The position numbers were made by a program, and so were the translations under genes. The notes under the pieces are model-generated. The model was not told the DNA's origin. It was given only the letters and a program-made list of their open reading frames with translations, and ran no database searches. DNA of 13,582 bases from NCBI GenBank assembly GCA_029555085.1, contig JAKPTO010000011.1:1-13582 (forward strand). The letters run 5' to 3'. The stretch comes from a bacterium. Lineage in GTDB: Bacteria; Patescibacteriota; Patescibacteriia; UBA1558; S5-K13. Below are positions 1-13,582 of the stretch, piece by piece. How positions within the stretch are numbered: the stretch's first letter is position 1; every line of letters starts with the position of its first letter.

Positions 1-50
1 CCGCCAATTTTCACTTTTTGTGAATAAAATTTAAACTATTTTTAATTGAT

Positions 51-214
51 AAAGAGAAGGGTTTTTCTCAGAATCATCTATCAAAAGAAGCGGAAGTGTG
101 TATAATACAATTATAAAAATAGAGTCAGGAGAGAATCCTAACCCTATAATAGACACGCCTGAACGGATTACCAAAGCTCTCGAAGTGTCTATTGAAAAAT
201 TATTTAAGGAATAA
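51..214 (+). pseudogene. Frameshifted, N-terminally damaged XRE/Cro-C1 family helix-turn-helix regulator
   Basis: 51-98 reads KEKGFSQNHLSKEAEV; after a 1-nt frameshift 101-214 reads YNTIIKIESGENPNPIIDTPERITKALEVSIEKLFKE*. Joined, this fits the HTH_3/XRE pattern (G.SQ..L...A.V....I..IE.G...NP...T...I.KAL.V....L). No in-frame ATG; stop at 21-23 upstream. Not in the ORF track. Confidence 0.8.
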
Positions 215-218
215 AAAT

Positions 219-378
219 ATGAGCGAAAAATTTTCAACACCAGAAAAATTTAGAACAAACAACAAAATCGAGCATAGGTACAATTTCAGATGAAGAAGGA
301 ATTTATGTTAATATACCAAAAAACGCAACGCTTCATTCGGGTTGGAGAATTGTTGGATTGAAAAAGTTAAAAGAATAA
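219..378 (+). pseudogene. Probable frameshifted remnant of a hypothetical protein gene
   Basis: ATG 219, 4 nt after the HTH stop and preceded by AAGGA. Reads MSEKFSTPE; removing one A from the A-run near 245 continues NLEQTTKSSIGTISDEEGIYVNIPKNATLHSGWRIVGLKKLKE* to TAA 376-378. The unshifted frame stops after 24 codons. Confidence 0.45.
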
Positions 379-596
379 AATAGCACACCAACTTCTCACT
401 AACACAATAACCCATAAAATTATCATTGTTAACAGACAATTTTTTAATATATTTTTAGATATAAACTAATAGATAAAAAAACAGATTTAGTGATTAATAT
501 AAAAATGTTTAATTAAAATATTATAAAAATAATTTCTATTTATACAATAAAATATCTAATAACCCAATCCCGAGTTTTTCTATCAATTATATAAGC

Positions 597-626
597 AAAA
601 AAGCTCGGCATTACTGTCGAGCTTTT
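597..626 (-). terminator. Rho-independent terminator (copy 1), possibly bidirectional
   Basis: Minus strand AAAAGCTCGACA-GTAA-TGCCGAGCTTTTTT: GC-rich stem with one mismatch, GNRA loop, U-tract. Confidence 0.8.
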
Positions 627-634
627 AATTAAGT

Positions 635-650
635 GAATCCTCGAGGATTC
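635..650. repeat. Perfect 16-bp palindrome/hairpin GAATCCTCGAGGATTC
   Basis: Self-complementary; lies between the stop codon at 657-659 and the terminator. Variant counterpart at 2592-2610. Confidence 0.85.
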
Positions 651-656
651 TAATTT

Positions 657-767
657 CTAAGTTTCATCTTCGATTTCATCAATGTCTTCAGTAACCTGTT
701 CTTGTCTGTGGTTCATCGGAATGAAACCACCTTTTTTTCGACCCCTTCCACGACATCCTCTGCCAAT
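657..767 (-). pseudogene. 5'-truncated second allele of the 63-aa small protein gene (3' 36 codons)
   Basis: Reads IGRGCRGRGRKKGGFIPMNHRQEQVTEDIDEIEDET*, matching the C-terminal part of 2623-2814. Upstream there is an in-frame TAA within 7 codons and no ATG or SD. Confidence 0.85.
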
Positions 768-817
768 GAATGCTATTTTAATTATTTATCACGAGATGAT
801 AAAGCTTATTAAAAATA

Positions 818-846
818 TTGCCATAATACATACTATTATATATAAT
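818..846 (+). promoter_or_regulatory. Sigma70-type promoter for the 404-aa ORF
   Basis: TTGCCA (818-823) - 17 bp - TATAAT (841-846), ending 48 nt upstream of ATG 895. Confidence 0.75.
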
Positions 847-894
847 TAAATAACTAACAAGTAGTCTGACACTAAACAAGTAACACGCAACTCT

Positions 895-2109
895 ATGGGC
901 AAACAAGAATTGTTCTTCGCTAAAGAACCAAAAATAGCAAAACAAGAAGAAATCGATTCTATCAACGAATACTACATGTCGAGTGATAATCTGGACAGTC
1001 AGATGTCACCAGCATTAGCGGCGGATAAGGCTGAAAAAGAGGCTAGCGAGCTGCTAATAGCTACAAAAAAGTACCATCAAATGCTAAATAAATATAAAGA
1101 AATTGAATCGGAAATAAGAATGAATCTGGCCAGAATTAATGATTTGAATCGGGATACAATATCAAAGATCATTTCAAGAATGGATAAAGACAGACATGAG
1201 TTACACCTGGCCACGATAGCGATGGCAGTTAAACTTGGAAAAAATGAACAAGATGTTTTAGTTGATTTAGTTAGGAAAGATAAGACACTTGCAGAATACG
1301 GCTTGCCAGAATTTTCAATATTTAACGGCTATGACATCATAGATACCGGCTACTGGTATAAACCCTTCATTGTTGACTCTGGTTATGTTATCGAGCAAGG
1401 CGAATATTTGCCTGATCGTAGAGACAACGGCATTGCGAATATAGAGCGTATAATGAATTATAAGCTAGAAGGAAGAAATTATGAATATAAACCAATGATT
1501 CCAGCAGATTCCTTTATGCTCGCGTTCAGTATCAGCGCCCTGAGCGCTCTCCGGCTAGATTCCGAAATAAGAATAGACAAGGCGACCAAGTTAGCTAAAG
1601 AATTAGACGGCCAATATATCTCAAAGTGTGACAGCTGTTACCATGAGGGCTATATTCGTTTCACCGGAGTAATATTTAAAAACAATAGATTTGAGGAGGT
1701 TGTCAATTATATAAAAAACAGCGGGAATAAATTTAGATTCGGTCAGGAATTCTATTCAGCTGAAGAGAAAGAACTGCTCAAAAAAAGATGGTTAGAAATT
1801 AAAAATTACAATAATAATAAGTTAAAGGAATTAGCCGATATAATTGAAAAATATAAAAATGCCCTAAAGAATAAAACCAACGATATTACAATAAACACCA
1901 GAAACATATTTGAACAGATGCCAGAAGAGTATGACAATCATCCACTTTATAGTCTTATATTCGAAATTAACGAACAGTTAAACTCACAAATATTTCAAGA
2001 ACTTATTTATTTAAAAAAAACCAATAAATTAGATGATAAAAATACTGCCATCTTGCTAGAAAAATTAAATAATCTATCCTTAGAAATAGAAAACTATTTC
2101 AAATCATAA
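895..2109 (+). CDS. Hypothetical protein, 404 aa; likely helical/coiled-coil ends and a central alpha/beta region with CDSCYH
   Basis: Long uninterrupted ORF with its own promoter, opposite in strand to the core genes. No family recognised; no signal peptide or TM segment apparent. Confidence 0.85.
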   Translation: MGKQELFFAKEPKIAKQEEIDSINEYYMSSDNLDSQMSPALAADKAEKEASELLIATKKYHQMLNKYKEIESEIRMNLARINDLNRDTISKIISRMDKDRHELHLATIAMAVKLGKNEQDVLVDLVRKDKTLAEYGLPEFSIFNGYDIIDTGYWYKPFIVDSGYVIEQGEYLPDRRDNGIANIERIMNYKLEGRNYEYKPMIPADSFMLAFSISALSALRLDSEIRIDKATKLAKELDGQYISKCDSCYHEGYIRFTGVIFKNNRFEEVVNYIKNSGNKFRFGQEFYSAEEKELLKKRWLEIKNYNNNKLKELADIIEKYKNALKNKTNDITINTRNIFEQMPEEYDNHPLYSLIFEINEQLNSQIFQELIYLKKTNKLDDKNTAILLEKLNNLSLEIENYFKS

Positions 2110-2196
2110 CTACTATATATAATCCAATGCTAATAACCTTCAGTTATCTGTTAAACACAAAATCCTATAACGGCTGACCTAGTACCAAAAACTGTC

Positions 2197-2403
2197 TTAA
2201 TTGCCCTCAATCAAACCAATTACCTGACCATCGCCACCGGTCAAGGTCAAATCACCACTATCGCTGATATTATAGCCGAAACCTTTTTGAACCACTAAAT
2301 CTGTTTTTAATTCATTTACTTTATTTACTGCTTTTACATAACACCATCTTGTATATACATCTATTAATGTATATACACATATCTTTTCTTTTTCGTTTTT
2401 CAT
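2197..2403 (-). pseudogene. Chimeric ORF: integrase-core transposase fragment fused to an unrelated GC-richer fragment
   Basis: First 30 residues are transposase-like. Composition and peptide character change at about 2293-2309 (…QKGFGYNISDSGDLTLTGGDGQVIGLIEGN). The coding strand of the second fragment is ambiguous because the + strand is also open over 2155-2298. Confidence 0.5.
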
Positions 2404-2448
2404 AAGATGAATATTAATATAAACTAATAGATAAAAACAGATTTAGTG
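2293..2448. repeat. Perfect 17-bp inverted repeat (2293-2309 and 2432-2448) enclosing the transposase fragment
   Basis: CACTAAATCTGTTTTTA at 2293-2309 is the exact reverse complement of TAAAAACAGATTTAGTG at 2432-2448. Sixteen bp of the motif recur at 477-492 as part of repeat copy 1. Confidence 0.9.
2314..2412 (-). mobile_element. Small internal fragment of an IS481/IS3-like DDE transposase (rve integrase core, first beta strands)
   Basis: IHLMKNEKEKICVYTLIDVYTRWCYVKAVNKVN matches the rve pattern (D-T-I-H…Y.hhT.ID..SR…A). The first catalytic Asp and everything downstream are missing. Confidence 0.7.
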
Positions 2449-2740
2449 ATTAATATAAAAATGTTTAATTAAAATATTATAAAAATAATTTCTATTTATA
2501 CAATAAAATATCTAATAACCCAATCCTGTGTTTTTCTATCAATTATTATAAGCAAAAAAGCTCGGCATTGCTGTCGAGCTTTTAATTAAGTAAACCCTCG
2601 AGGGGGGTTCTAACTGTAGAGATTACTCATCTTCGGTTTCATCAATACATTCATCACATTCATCAACTTGTTCTTGTCTGTGATTCATCGGAATGAAACC
2701 ACCTTTTTTTCGACCCCTTCCACGACATCCTCTGCCAATG
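2417..2740. repeat. Direct repeat copy 2 (324 bp) of 459-768
   Basis: See copy 1. This copy is continuous with the intact 63-aa gene. Confidence 0.97.
2554..2583 (-). terminator. Rho-independent terminator of the 63-aa gene (copy 2)
   Basis: Minus strand AAAAGCTCGACA-GCAA-TGCCGAGCTTTTTT, about 40 nt after the stop at 2623-2625. Confidence 0.85.
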
Positions 2741-2814
2741 GGCGTGCCACTGCGATTCGTATCGTTATTGGAATCTAATTTTTTTTCTGCGCGTTTCTTT
2801 AGTTTTTGCGCCAT
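2623..2814 (-). CDS. Small disordered protein (63 aa): basic N-terminus, GRGCRGRGRKKGG core, acidic C-terminal tail
   Basis: ATG with AGGAGG (2824-2829) 9 nt upstream and a terminator downstream. Comparison with the second allele shows three synonymous changes and one in-frame 9-nt indel, consistent with coding selection. Confidence 0.8.
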   Translation of the reverse strand: MAQKLKKRAEKKLDSNNDTNRSGTPIGRGCRGRGRKKGGFIPMNHRQEQVDECDECIDETEDE

Positions 2815-2873
2815 ATGGATTTTCCTCCTATAATTTGATTTCTTTCATGATAGATACATTACTACATTAACAA

Positions 2874-3176
2874 CTATTCGTCAATATAATCTCCTCCACT
2901 ATTGCTAATTTTTTTAGCTCGATTATAAAATTCTTCTGAAATTCTAATAGTGCGTTTACACTGATCACATCTGTGAAAATATATATTTTCTCCAGAAAAA
3001 GCATGATAAATCCCAAATTCATGTATAAAAACACCTCCCATGCGAATACAATTCTTTTTTAACAAAAAGGTATTATCCACTAAATGAAAACTAAAATGAA
3101 TTTCATCTCCACATTCACTTAACTCTTCCAAACGACGAGCTTTTTTTAACTCAAACTCATTCAAATTATGCTTCAC
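2874..3176 (-). CDS. Hypothetical protein, 100 aa, possible zinc-binding (C-x8-H…CxxC)
   Basis: GTG start with GGGAGG (3182-3187) 5 nt upstream; follows ppsA after a 22-nt gap. Contains CIRMGGVFIH and HRCDQCK. Confidence 0.7.
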   Translation of the reverse strand: MKHNLNEFELKKARRLEELSECGDEIHFSFHLVDNTFLLKKNCIRMGGVFIHEFGIYHAFSGENIYFHRCDQCKRTIRISEEFYNRAKKISNSGGDYIDE

Positions 3177-3198
3177 AATTTCCTCCCATTTATATAAA

Positions 3199-5592
3199 CT
3201 ATTTATTTTTTCCCAACATTAAAATTGTCTTAACAACTGAGTCCGGAATCAGCGACATACTATCAATTCCTTCTTTTACTAAAAATTTTGCAAATTCAGG
3301 AAAATCACTTGGCGCTTGTCCACAAATTCCAACCTTTCTTTTATTTTTCTTTGCTATTTTTATAACTTGAGCAATTAAGGTTTTTACTGCTTGATTTTGT
3401 TCATCATAAATATGCGACAACATAGCAGAATCCCTATCTACTCCCAAAGTTAACTGAGTTAAGTCATTTGAACCGATAGAAAATCCATCAAAAATTTTAC
3501 AAAACTCTTCTGCTAATATTACATTTGATGGAATCTCGCACATAACATAAATTTCTAATCCATTTACTCTTCTTTTCAATCCCTCACTTTCCATTATTTT
3601 TATAACTTTTTTTCCCTCTTCTACTGTTCTACAAAATGGAATCATTATTTTTACATTATTGAGACCCATTTGTTCTCTAACTCTTTTTAGTGCCTGACAT
3701 TCCAATCTAAAAGCTTTTTCATATTTTTTGTCATAATAACGAGATGCTCCGCGCCAACCAATCATTGGATTGCCCTCAATTGGCTCAAAATATTTTCCAC
3801 CTAATAAATTTGCATATTCATTTGATTTAAAATCAGATAATCTTACAATTACATCTTTTGGATAAAATGCTGCTGAAATACGAGCTACGCCTTCGGCAAG
3901 TTTTTCAACAAAAAATTCTGCTTTGCTTTTATAATTAACTGTTAAATTTTTAATTTGTTCACGCTCTTCTTTGTCTTTTACTTTTTCAAATTCCAAAAGC
4001 GCTAATGGATGAATTTTTATATAATTTGAAATTATAAATTCTTCTCTCGCAAGACCAACTCCGTGATTTGGAATCATTGAATCCCTAAATGCCTGCCTTG
4101 GATTTCCAACATTCATCATTATTTTTACATTTTTCGGTAATTTAAGAAACTTCAAATCTATATCTTTTTTCTCAAACGGAACTTTTCCATCATACACAAA
4201 TCCCTCTTCACCAAGAGAACAATCAACTGTCACAAATTGATTATTTTTTAATTTTGAAGTTGCAGTTGTTGTTCCGACAACACATGGAATTCCAAGTTCA
4301 CGAGACACAATTGCCGCATGACAGGTTCTTCCACCTGAATTTGTTATAATTGCGCTAGCTTTTTTCATTACTGGCTCCCAATCAGGATCAGTCATTTCTG
4401 CAACTAAAATTTCTCCCTGTTTAAAATTAACGAGCTCTGAAACTTTTTTTATAATGTGAGTAGGGCCACAACCAATTTTTTTACCCACTGATTGTCCTGT
4501 TAAAATTATTTTTCCTTTTTGTTTTATTTTATACTCAGTCAAAATATTTTTATTCTCACGAGATATAACTGTTTCTGGGCGAGCTTGAACAATATATAAT
4601 TTATTTGTCTTTCCATCTTTTGCCCACTCCATATCCATTGGCCTCTTATAATAATCCTCTATGATTACTGCCCACTTTGCCAATTGAATTATTTCCTTAT
4701 CTTCTAAAACAAATTTTAATCTCTCTTCAATTGGCACATCAACATTTTGAGTTGAATGCGTACCACCTGTTGCATATATTAATTTTTTCGCTTTTTCTCC
4801 TACGTCTTTACCTATAATAGAATTATATTTTCGCTTCAATGTTGGTTTATAAACATGATATTCATCCGGCGTAACAACTCCCTTTACAACATATTCTCCT
4901 AGTCCATAAGCGGCATTTATAACAACAATTTCGGGAAATCCAGATTCAGTATCAACTGAAAACATAACTCCTGACGACGCAAGGTCGGATCTTACCATTT
5001 TTTGAACCACCACTGATAATGCAATTTTAAAATGACTAATTTTTTTATCCATTCTATAAGAAATTGAACGATCTGTGAATAAAGATGCCATGCATTTTTT
5101 GACCGACTCTAATAAGGAATGCTCACCGGTAATATTTAAATAAGATTCTTGCTGACCCGCGAAACTAGCATCAGGAGCATCTTCCGCTGTAGCGCTAGAA
5201 CGAACCGCAACATCACAATCCAATATTGTGGTTTTATAAAAATCTGCTAATTTTTTATATGCATCAATTATTTGTTCTTTTAAATCTTCTGGAAATTCTG
5301 ATTTTAAAATCAATTCTCTAATTTTCTTTGCTTTATTTTGTAAATCGGTAATTCTATCTATCCTCAGCTCTCTCAAAATTTTATTAATATCTTCCTTTAT
5401 CTTGTTGTGTTTTAAAAAATACCAATAAGCATCAGATGTTATTGCAAATCCATTTGGAATAGGAACTCCCTTACTTGAAAGTTTTTGGTACATCTCGCCA
5501 AGCGATGCATTTTTACCACCAACAAGAGGAACATCTTTTATTGTTAATTCTTTAAACCATGATACATATTTTTGTTTTTTTGTTTTAGACAT
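3199..5592 (-). CDS. ppsA: Phosphoenolpyruvate synthase (pyruvate, water dikinase)
   Basis: 797 aa; VGGKNASLGEM, AVRSSATAED…SFAGQQ, phospho-His motif GGRTCHAAIVSRELG, GFSIGSNDLTQ, GICGQAPSD. Confidence 0.98.
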   Translation of the reverse strand: MSKTKKQKYVSWFKELTIKDVPLVGGKNASLGEMYQKLSSKGVPIPNGFAITSDAYWYFLKHNKIKEDINKILRELRIDRITDLQNKAKKIRELILKSEFPEDLKEQIIDAYKKLADFYKTTILDCDVAVRSSATAEDAPDASFAGQQESYLNITGEHSLLESVKKCMASLFTDRSISYRMDKKISHFKIALSVVVQKMVRSDLASSGVMFSVDTESGFPEIVVINAAYGLGEYVVKGVVTPDEYHVYKPTLKRKYNSIIGKDVGEKAKKLIYATGGTHSTQNVDVPIEERLKFVLEDKEIIQLAKWAVIIEDYYKRPMDMEWAKDGKTNKLYIVQARPETVISRENKNILTEYKIKQKGKIILTGQSVGKKIGCGPTHIIKKVSELVNFKQGEILVAEMTDPDWEPVMKKASAIITNSGGRTCHAAIVSRELGIPCVVGTTTATSKLKNNQFVTVDCSLGEEGFVYDGKVPFEKKDIDLKFLKLPKNVKIMMNVGNPRQAFRDSMIPNHGVGLAREEFIISNYIKIHPLALLEFEKVKDKEEREQIKNLTVNYKSKAEFFVEKLAEGVARISAAFYPKDVIVRLSDFKSNEYANLLGGKYFEPIEGNPMIGWRGASRYYDKKYEKAFRLECQALKRVREQMGLNNVKIMIPFCRTVEEGKKVIKIMESEGLKRRVNGLEIYVMCEIPSNVILAEEFCKIFDGFSIGSNDLTQLTLGVDRDSAMLSHIYDEQNQAVKTLIAQVIKIAKKNKRKVGICGQAPSDFPEFAKFLVKEGIDSMSLIPDSVVKTILMLGKNK

Positions 5593-13307: not shown

Positions 13308-13336
13308 ATTTTAGCAAAAAATCACCCCAAAATCAA
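13308..13336 (-). promoter_or_regulatory. Putative gyrB promoter
   Basis: Minus strand TTGATT (13336-13331) - 17 bp - TAAAAT (13313-13308) with extended -10 TGC. A divergent TGCTATAAT lies on the + strand at 13301-13309. Confidence 0.55.
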
Positions 13337-13355
13337 GGTAATTTTAGGGTGATTT
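13319..13355 (-). terminator. 15-bp-arm inverted repeat; terminator-like on the minus strand
   Basis: AAATCACCCCAAAAT-CAAGGTA-ATTTTAGGGTGATTT. The single mismatch is a U-G pair in minus-strand RNA, and the stem ends in a U-run. Confidence 0.65.
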
Positions 13356-13440
13356 ATTGTCATTTTATACAATCAATAAAAAACTTTATGTGCTTCAAAA
13401 TACCGATAATATTAAAACTAAAATGCAACAGTAATTTTGT

Positions 13441-13582
13441 CAAATTTTGGGTCAAAAAGGTCTTATGCCAAACCCAAAGAGCGGAACAATTGATAATGAT
13501 ATTGAAAAAATGATTAAGGAATTAAAAGCTGGAAAAGAATCATTTAAAAACGATGACAGTGCAAATGTGCATTTAGCTGTTG
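13441..13582 (+). pseudogene. rplA: C-terminal half of 50S ribosomal protein uL1, 5'-truncated, running off the window edge
   Basis: QILGQKGLMPNPKSGTIDNDIEKMIKELKAGKESFKNDDSANVHLAV carries the uL1 signature LG..GLMPNPK.GT…ELK.GK..F..D…N.H. In-frame TAA at 13432-13434; only about 195 nt separate it from the gyrB start, too little for the missing N-terminal half. Confidence 0.85.

Follow-up and report, generated by a model that had tools for sequence, protein, structure and literature searches.

When a circle recombines with homologous chromosomal DNA by a single crossover of the Campbell type, direct repeats are left on both sides of the insert and one of them completes the gene. In the pilE/pilS system of Neisseria, the expressed gene is altered by gene conversion from silent cassettes and lies beside a promoter-less partial copy. 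The locus described here occupies positions 459 to 2814 of contig JAKPTO010000011.1 (C2 in this work), whose entire length of 13,582 nucleotides (nt) is the window; the genome, from a member of the Patescibacteria, comprises 1.02 Mb in 53 contigs and is 99% complete. It consists of two direct repeats, a cargo gene between them, and a small gene of 63 amino acids (aa) whose 3′ part is present in both repeats. Passages of PMC5361080 discuss the displacement of C-terminal coding ends for rhs, cdiA and type VI secretion system (T6SS) effector loci with orphan 3′ fragments, and credit the idea to Jackson et al. 2009 and the recombination in vivo to Koskiniemi et al. 2014. The cryptic prophage e14, inserted in icd of E. 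coli, leaves an icdC pseudogene, as stated in a passage of PMC13626634 citing Hill et al. 1989. The present locus is probably (at a rough probability of 0.6) the recombination scar of a horizontal import from a related lineage, with the old gene end displaced as an orphan.

Anatomy of the repeats and the two gene ends

The direct repeats, R1 (459-768) and R2 (2417-2740), are 89% identical over 326 columns in BLASTN and enclose 1,648 nt of cargo (769-2416). A repeat search recovered them as three blocks, 477-590 = 2433-2546 (98%), 590-646 = 2547-2603 (95%) and 687-768 = 2659-2740 (95%). A sequence-only reading of the window had already described two diverged direct repeats around about 1.65 kb, and both searches bear this out; its architecture stands, while the left edge of copy 2, which it placed at about 2415, lies at 2417. 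Each repeat contains the final 37-38 codons of the 63-aa gene, two hairpins and an AT-rich block, and extends about 200 nt beyond the stop codon. Further copies in the genome, for which a search had been proposed, were not found: R1 and R2 are the only two, the third match being just 62 nt long at 76% identity (E 1e-3). The features of the locus and its surroundings are as follows.

1..6, + strand: 3′ end of tRNA-Ser(GGA) (..CCA), with the remainder on contig C38 at 13308-13396
7..458, no strand: left flank from the tRNA to R1, without a supported gene; helix-turn-helix (HTH)-like frames have no Pfam match
459..768, − strand: R1, with AT-rich block (459-598), terminator hairpin (599-626), hairpin 2 (635-650) and orphan gene end (767..657, tail 1)
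712..768, no strand: 57-nt core, equal to 2684-2740
769..894, + strand: junction, then the DNA ahead of the cargo gene, including a promoter-like site (818-846)
895..2109, + strand: cargo gene, 404 aa, with 81 remote relatives and a confident AlphaFold model
2197..2403, − strand: chimeric open reading frame (ORF), 68 aa, whose first 36 residues are a transposase fragment; terminator-like site at 2245-2223
2302..2416, − strand: internal piece, 115 nt, of an IS481-like (rve) transposase gene, 93% identical to C41:450-564
2417..2740, − strand: R2, with AT block, terminator hairpin, hairpin 2 and the 3′ part of the intact gene (tail 2)
2623..2814, − strand: intact 63-aa gene, with basic N-terminus, GR-rich core and acidic tail
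2874..3176, − strand: orf100, 100 aa, Cys/His-rich and conserved, before the small-gene slot in seven relatives
3199..5592, − strand: ppsA, of the phosphoenolpyruvate synthase / pyruvate phosphate dikinase type, the syntenic anchor

Identity between the two copies is distributed as a mosaic. The perfect match of 57 nt at the gene-internal border (712-768 = 2684-2740), noticed at the outset, is exact, and a T7/A7 run lies inside it. By block, R1 and R2 agree at 134/139 positions in the AT block, 27/28 in hairpin 1, 25/33 in the hairpin 2 region, 43/67 in the tail and 57/57 in the core, so that the differences are clustered, with exact runs of 94 and 57 nt and a strongly diverged tail. When the 25 difference events were shuffled, two such runs occurred jointly in 1 of 20,000 shuffles, and the mosaic is therefore not a product of chance. 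Hairpins 1 and 2 have folding energies of −19.3 and −22.7 kcal/mol (z of −3.2 and −3.4 against shuffled sequence), and the stem of hairpin 2 is kept between the copies by a two-sided change, 638 T/C with 647 A/G.

The small gene adjoining R2 is intact (2814..2623, − strand), and AGGAGG stands 9 nt ahead of its ATG. The frame of R1 is open from codon 26 as far as the TAG at 657-659; upstream of it there are only stops, without an ATG. It fits the description of an orphan gene end, a start-less and 5′-truncated 3′ copy downstream of an intact gene, and the far copy is indeed the 3′ part of the same gene, as the sequence-only reading had held. Tails 1 and 2 are separated by three synonymous changes, three replaced codons and in-frame indels of 9 nt and 3 nt, the latter placed just before the stop; the variable part is an acidic tail of 13-15 residues. 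The suggestion that the tails differ like alleles had been based on the synonymous changes and the 9-nt in-frame indel. Both were observed, and the 3-nt in-frame indel and the compensated stem of hairpin 2 can be added to them. Because the coding indels are in frame and the stem is compensated, the divergence fits two alleles that evolved while functional.

The small protein matched no Pfam, NCBIfam or PHROG family. In the collection scans, here and below, from which records near this genome may have been left out, hidden or masked, an alignment of the small protein gave no match in metagenome or genome contigs, and a degenerate DNA pattern covering 13 core residues gave none in the metagenome and genome collections. 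A frameshifted small protein of 49 aa (P0008) is present on a public contig of 31,765 nt. It is consistent with a change from A7 to A5 in 2701-2707 and may reflect either a sequencing error in the homopolymer or a variant that arose by slippage.

The cargo gene is preceded by a promoter-like site (818-846) that agrees with 11 of 12 consensus positions. An exhaustive HMMER search returned 81 relatives of its protein at E ≤ 1e-3, so the cargo is not an ORFan; the best full-length relative is 38% identical over residues ∼45-300. A word-index protein search returned a single cluster of near-identical 404-aa copies, the representative of which differs by one residue from the protein of the window. 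The family is absent from all 13 other genomes of the taxonomic family and present in one of 400 genomes sampled from the phylum, where the relative (L028:7421-8386) adjoins a DUF2130 gene and a PIF1-like helicase. Pfam gave no match on the cargo protein and none above cut-off in the 17 of its 81 relatives that were scanned. Likewise, there was no NCBIfam family, no PHROG match (with 52 aligned members), no match among PDB sequences or in the ESM Atlas, and no relative in the viral contigs of the collection scan. With the 52-sequence alignment, AlphaFold predicted a helical hairpin, an alpha/beta domain and a helical bundle at a pLDDT (predicted local distance difference test) of 84.4 and a pTM (predicted template modelling score) of 0.78; from the single sequence, pLDDT was 45.8. 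Foldseek against PDB gave no match to this model at E ≤ 0.001, and the top VIA wide match (Z of 9.9) covered the helical hairpin only and was under the level that is meaningful for helices. The cargo represents a rare, unnamed family of at least 81 members and about 250 residues with a confidently predicted fold, for which no solved relative was found. Its base composition shows no strong anomaly (GC of 0.34 in the ORF and 0.30 in the contig).

Between the cargo gene and R2, positions 2302-2416 match an internal part (residues ∼150-188) of a 296-aa IS481-like transposase gene located at the start of contig C41, and this fragment ends no more than three bases from the outer edge of R2. Three other contigs carry full rve matches at their ends or close to them. 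The locus does not qualify as an insertion sequence (IS) element or a composite transposon: only an internal piece of the transposase is left, and the repeats at the borders are direct ones of 310-324 nt. Sixteen nt of the AT block (2433-2448, 477-492) recur inverted at 2293-2308, where the homology to the IS transposase stops. This hints at another rearrangement joint, although a chance occurrence in AT-rich DNA is possible.

Two further candidates were discarded. An XRE-type HTH remnant, read by eye in 48-214, had no Pfam match even at E ≤ 1, and the only Rfam match, FsrA, scored 19.9 bits against a gathering score of 80.

The slot in related genomes

The order ppsA, orf100 and an ORF of 61-72 aa is kept in 7/7 of the relatives' loci, and tRNA-Ser(GGA) lies close to the slot in six of the seven as well as in this genome. 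Beyond the tRNA, contig C38 carries an HD-domain gene and a 348-aa gene; in the two same-genus relatives tested, the far side is likewise occupied by the HD-domain gene or the 348-aa gene. Since the ppsA/orf100 side and the HD-domain/348-aa side are both shared, synteny extends to both flanks of the slot. Most of these loci have, in the space from the small ORF to the tRNA, a convergent Cys-rich gene of ∼110-180 codons, which was looked for in this genome and not found. NCBIfam gave no match for orf100 or for the relatives' Cys-rich protein.

The DNA intervening between R1 and R2 is missing from the same site in all seven of the relatives' loci, which agrees with the description of an accessory block in the sequence-only reading. 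Terminator hairpin 1 is kept at the syntenic spot in 3/3 same-genus relatives, so the repeat unit is native to this type of locus. In each of the six relatives tested with a matching query, the small gene occurs once. At least three types of small ORF, mutually unalignable by BLASTP, are found in the slot, and the type in this genome is shared with another genus (g3) and not with its own. Identity of the small protein to that genus is 45-50% in the genome search and 39-44% in the alignment.

The slot as a whole is hypervariable, while its flanks and the terminator are conserved. Partial copies of tRNA and protein genes were also seen elsewhere. Within 13107-13396 of contig C38, 36 nt from the 5′ part of tRNA-Ser(GGA) recur about 100 nt ahead of the complete tRNA gene and are followed by a GC-rich hairpin. 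Relatives G001 and G003 have GIY-YIG-type ORFs that extend into 5′ parts of this tRNA and are partly duplicated. Part of ribosomal protein L1 (profile positions 96-155) is encoded at the right end of the window (13402-13582), closely preceded by a TAA. The last 141 nt of the window equal part of the true rplA on contig C21 (1-436; profile positions 1-155), and two contigs thus converge on one 141-mer. The L1 piece could represent another partial gene copy of the displaced-fragment kind.

Probable import by recombination and its alternatives

From the observed anatomy, synteny, rarity of the cargo, allele-like divergence and absence of an integrase, we infer a donor, an order of events and a mechanism for the joint. 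The gap between tRNA-Ser(GGA) and the block of ppsA, orf100 and the small gene would be a swap-prone slot in this family of Patescibacteria. DNA of a related lineage would have entered the slot with its own gene end, terminator and AT block, and with a different neighbour beyond them. Homologous recombination may have acted on one side, with an illegitimate joint formed at 768/769 inside the small gene (codon 25/26); a single crossover of a circularised fragment would be an equivalent route. The predicted product is an intact, expressed gene composed of the 5′ part and R2, with the start-less R1 displaced beyond the imported block. The left edges of the repeats, 458/459 and 2416/2417, would then mark the points where the neighbours of the two lineages diverged. 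A recombinase encoded by an element is unlikely to have been involved, the sole recombinase-like sequence being the dead 115-nt IS shard. RecA is encoded in the genome, and the identical stretches of 57 and 94 nt could still serve as substrates for RecA-dependent deletion or gene conversion, which would place tail 1 on the expressed gene. Homology-facilitated uptake from relatives, which the sequence-only reading had raised as a possible route, provides the best explanation: the cargo is foreign, the tails are allele-like and no integrase was found.

Several observations weigh against this explanation. The coding indels number only two, and both would fall in frame by chance about once in nine. 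R2 is slightly nearer to the relatives than R1 (hairpin 1 loop differences of 1 and 2, respectively), and the V-D pair that is invariant in the family alignment is kept in tail 2 only. A perfect core beside a diverged tail is not predicted by simple import and would require that the core be strongly conserved or that gene conversion acted afterwards. The collection scans returned no donor lineage, no empty site and no second cargo between the same repeats. Finally, contigs of public sequencing runs, which were assembled from short words, do not assign the tails to the ends.

Some of these points also bear on a local segmental duplication, for example during an IS-associated rearrangement, after which the unexpressed copy would have drifted while gene conversion preserved the 57-nt and 94-nt stretches. 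The clustered identity could stem from such conversion, R2 is the copy closer to the relatives, and the IS fragment lies at the outer edge of R2 with the inverted 16-nt piece at the end of the IS homology. However, drift of an unexpressed copy does not readily account for coding indels that are in frame, a frame in R1 that is open to its stop, or a compensated change in hairpin 2. The cargo family is, moreover, foreign to this family of genomes, and an import event would therefore be needed even if the repeat had arisen by duplication. This origin is considered unlikely.

A decayed site-specific integrative element of the e14/icd kind, which would have supplied a new 3′ end and since lost its integrase, was also considered. 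Such an element would explain a direct repeat with the 3′ end of the gene at both borders, the perfect identity by the gene-internal border, and a location beside a tRNA gene in a variable slot. Yet no tyrosine or serine recombinase is present. An integrase was looked for beside the repeat and not found, in agreement with the integrase-less locus originally described; only the 115-nt internal rve fragment, a piece of a DDE transposase with full IS copies elsewhere, was recovered. The repeat continues for ∼200 nt beyond the stop codon, an unusual length for an att site, and att-type repeats of the tRNA 3′ end (15-45 nt, up to 3 mismatches) were absent from the window. No relatives of the cargo were found in the viral contigs scanned, which points in the same direction. 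The notion of an island or dedicated gene-capture site is likewise not upheld: short att-type cores, a recombinase and alternative cargo between these repeats are all lacking. The search for empty sites and alternative cargos that had been proposed, carried out in viral, metagenome and genome collections in which records of this genome may be masked, gave no such locus. A decayed element is thus improbable as the source of the block.

The two tails may also be exchanged between the copies, to judge from protein sequences on record. A 61-aa protein, P0007, consists of the 5′ part, the core and exactly tail 1. It is found in the protein collection on one public contig of 1,874 nt (JGI/IMG and Logan), and the last 204 residues of the cargo protein are found on a contig of the same length and source. 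If P0007 and the cargo end share one contig, tail 1 would occupy the expressed position next to a retained cargo, and gene conversion, reciprocal exchange or a mis-join across the 57-nt repeat would follow. The sequence-only reading had predicted a recombinant with a switched tail, produced by excision. The switched protein does exist on record, but its contig seems to keep the cargo end, so that an exchange or a mis-join, and not excision, would be responsible. In its strongest form, the proposal would be a working two-state switch, with R1 as a silent cassette and its tail transferred by RecA gene conversion through the 57-nt and 94-nt arms. The conserved arms around a hypervariable middle, the presence of RecA and P0007 with its companion contig are all in keeping with this. 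Against it, tail 1 is joined to the gene on one contig and tail 2 on 23, and the protein could equally result from a mis-join over the exact 57-nt repeat when a contig is short and of low coverage. The silent copy is, moreover, single, and none of the relatives carries another. A functioning switch is therefore improbable. If it were real, a fast-evolving small protein would alternate between two states in a tiny-genome bacterium of the candidate phyla radiation (CPR), with P0007 as the switched state; a true exchange of tails would amount to a minimal gene-conversion switch, and to our knowledge none has been described in this group.

Whether the assembled arrangement is real was assessed from public data, as an artefact had been named as the condition under which the interpretation would fail. 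Sampled words of positions 1-3400 were present at a fraction of 0.99 in 20 runs from 12 studies. (These runs are labelled activated sludge, wastewater, soil, digester and metagenome, and date from 2016-2024.) Contigs from four of the runs, each from a different study, gave the same seven pieces: 1-506, the shared 94-mer, 541-741, 739-2462, 2497-2713, the shared 57-mer, and 2711 onwards. The junction 768/769 and the unique pieces recurred, and no differing letters, joints or indels were observed, so the organism is strikingly clonal across samples. By word depth in the contigs, which is a rough measure, the shared 94-mer and 57-mer stood at 1.3-3.1 times the unique pieces, and the depth of the cargo was near that of the flanks. 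The piece overlaps indicate that the run contigs were built from 31-nt words, to be set against a repeat of 310 nt, and that rare variants were dropped. No empty-site contig appeared among them, but such contigs do not span the repeat and are also compatible with an empty site and a separate 2-kb circle at equal abundance. In the genome itself, five contig ends overlap by exactly 141 nt, including that of C38 with C2 (window 1-141 equals the end of C38). These exact overlaps suggest a graph of 141-nt words, where even the longest shared run (94 nt) would be resolved. In the protein collection, the 63-aa protein was found on 23 contigs and the cargo protein of the window on 19, the longest contig being 76,661 nt for both. 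The repeat arrangement is thus probably not an assembly artefact: although a contig end of this 53-contig metagenome-assembled genome is 459 nt from the structure, the false chaining of two strain alleles into a tandem is highly improbable, given the unchanged recurrence of the junction and unique pieces in four studies at flank-like depth, the apparent assembly words longer than every shared run, and the long contigs that carry both proteins.

Comparison with known systems

As an import by recombination, the locus would be a clean and very small case of reduced-genome Patescibacteria gaining an accessory gene without the enzyme of a mobile element. The homologous gene end would act as the anchor and the displaced allele would remain as the footprint. 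Such footprints would flag swap-prone slots and could be used for locating recently imported genes.

The resemblance to a Campbell-type integration is evident in the direct repeats of a homologous segment that flank the insert, one of which completes the gene; no circular form was seen here. As in pilE/pilS, a partial copy lies next to an expressed gene and conserved arms surround a variable segment. The present locus differs in that the silent copy is single and that no sign of frequent or programmed exchange was found.

In the e14/icd case, so far as it is set out in the passage of PMC13626634, the insert supplies a new gene end, the old end lies at the far border, and recombination between the ends yields a chimeric functional gene. 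These features would be shared with the present locus. In contrast, e14 has its own site-specific recombination and an excision induced by the SOS response, whereas here there is no integrase and the block is 1.6 kb.

The rhs, cdiA and T6SS effector loci, within the account given in passages of PMC5361080, differ from the present locus in the gene itself, which has 63 codons here and an acidic tail of 13-15 residues instead of a toxin domain. They also differ in what accompanies the gene end, as no immunity-like partner can be recognised here and the repeat includes ∼200 nt of non-coding terminator and AT-rich DNA. The likeness lies in the order of the parts, an intact gene followed by acquired DNA and then a start-less 3′ copy, with a shared stretch that gives way to divergence. 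It extends to the homology-facilitated illegitimate recombination that is proposed for those loci, and to an orphan that could recombine back into the expressed gene. Set beside these systems, the locus is best read as an ordinary import footprint of a known kind, and not as a new mobile element.

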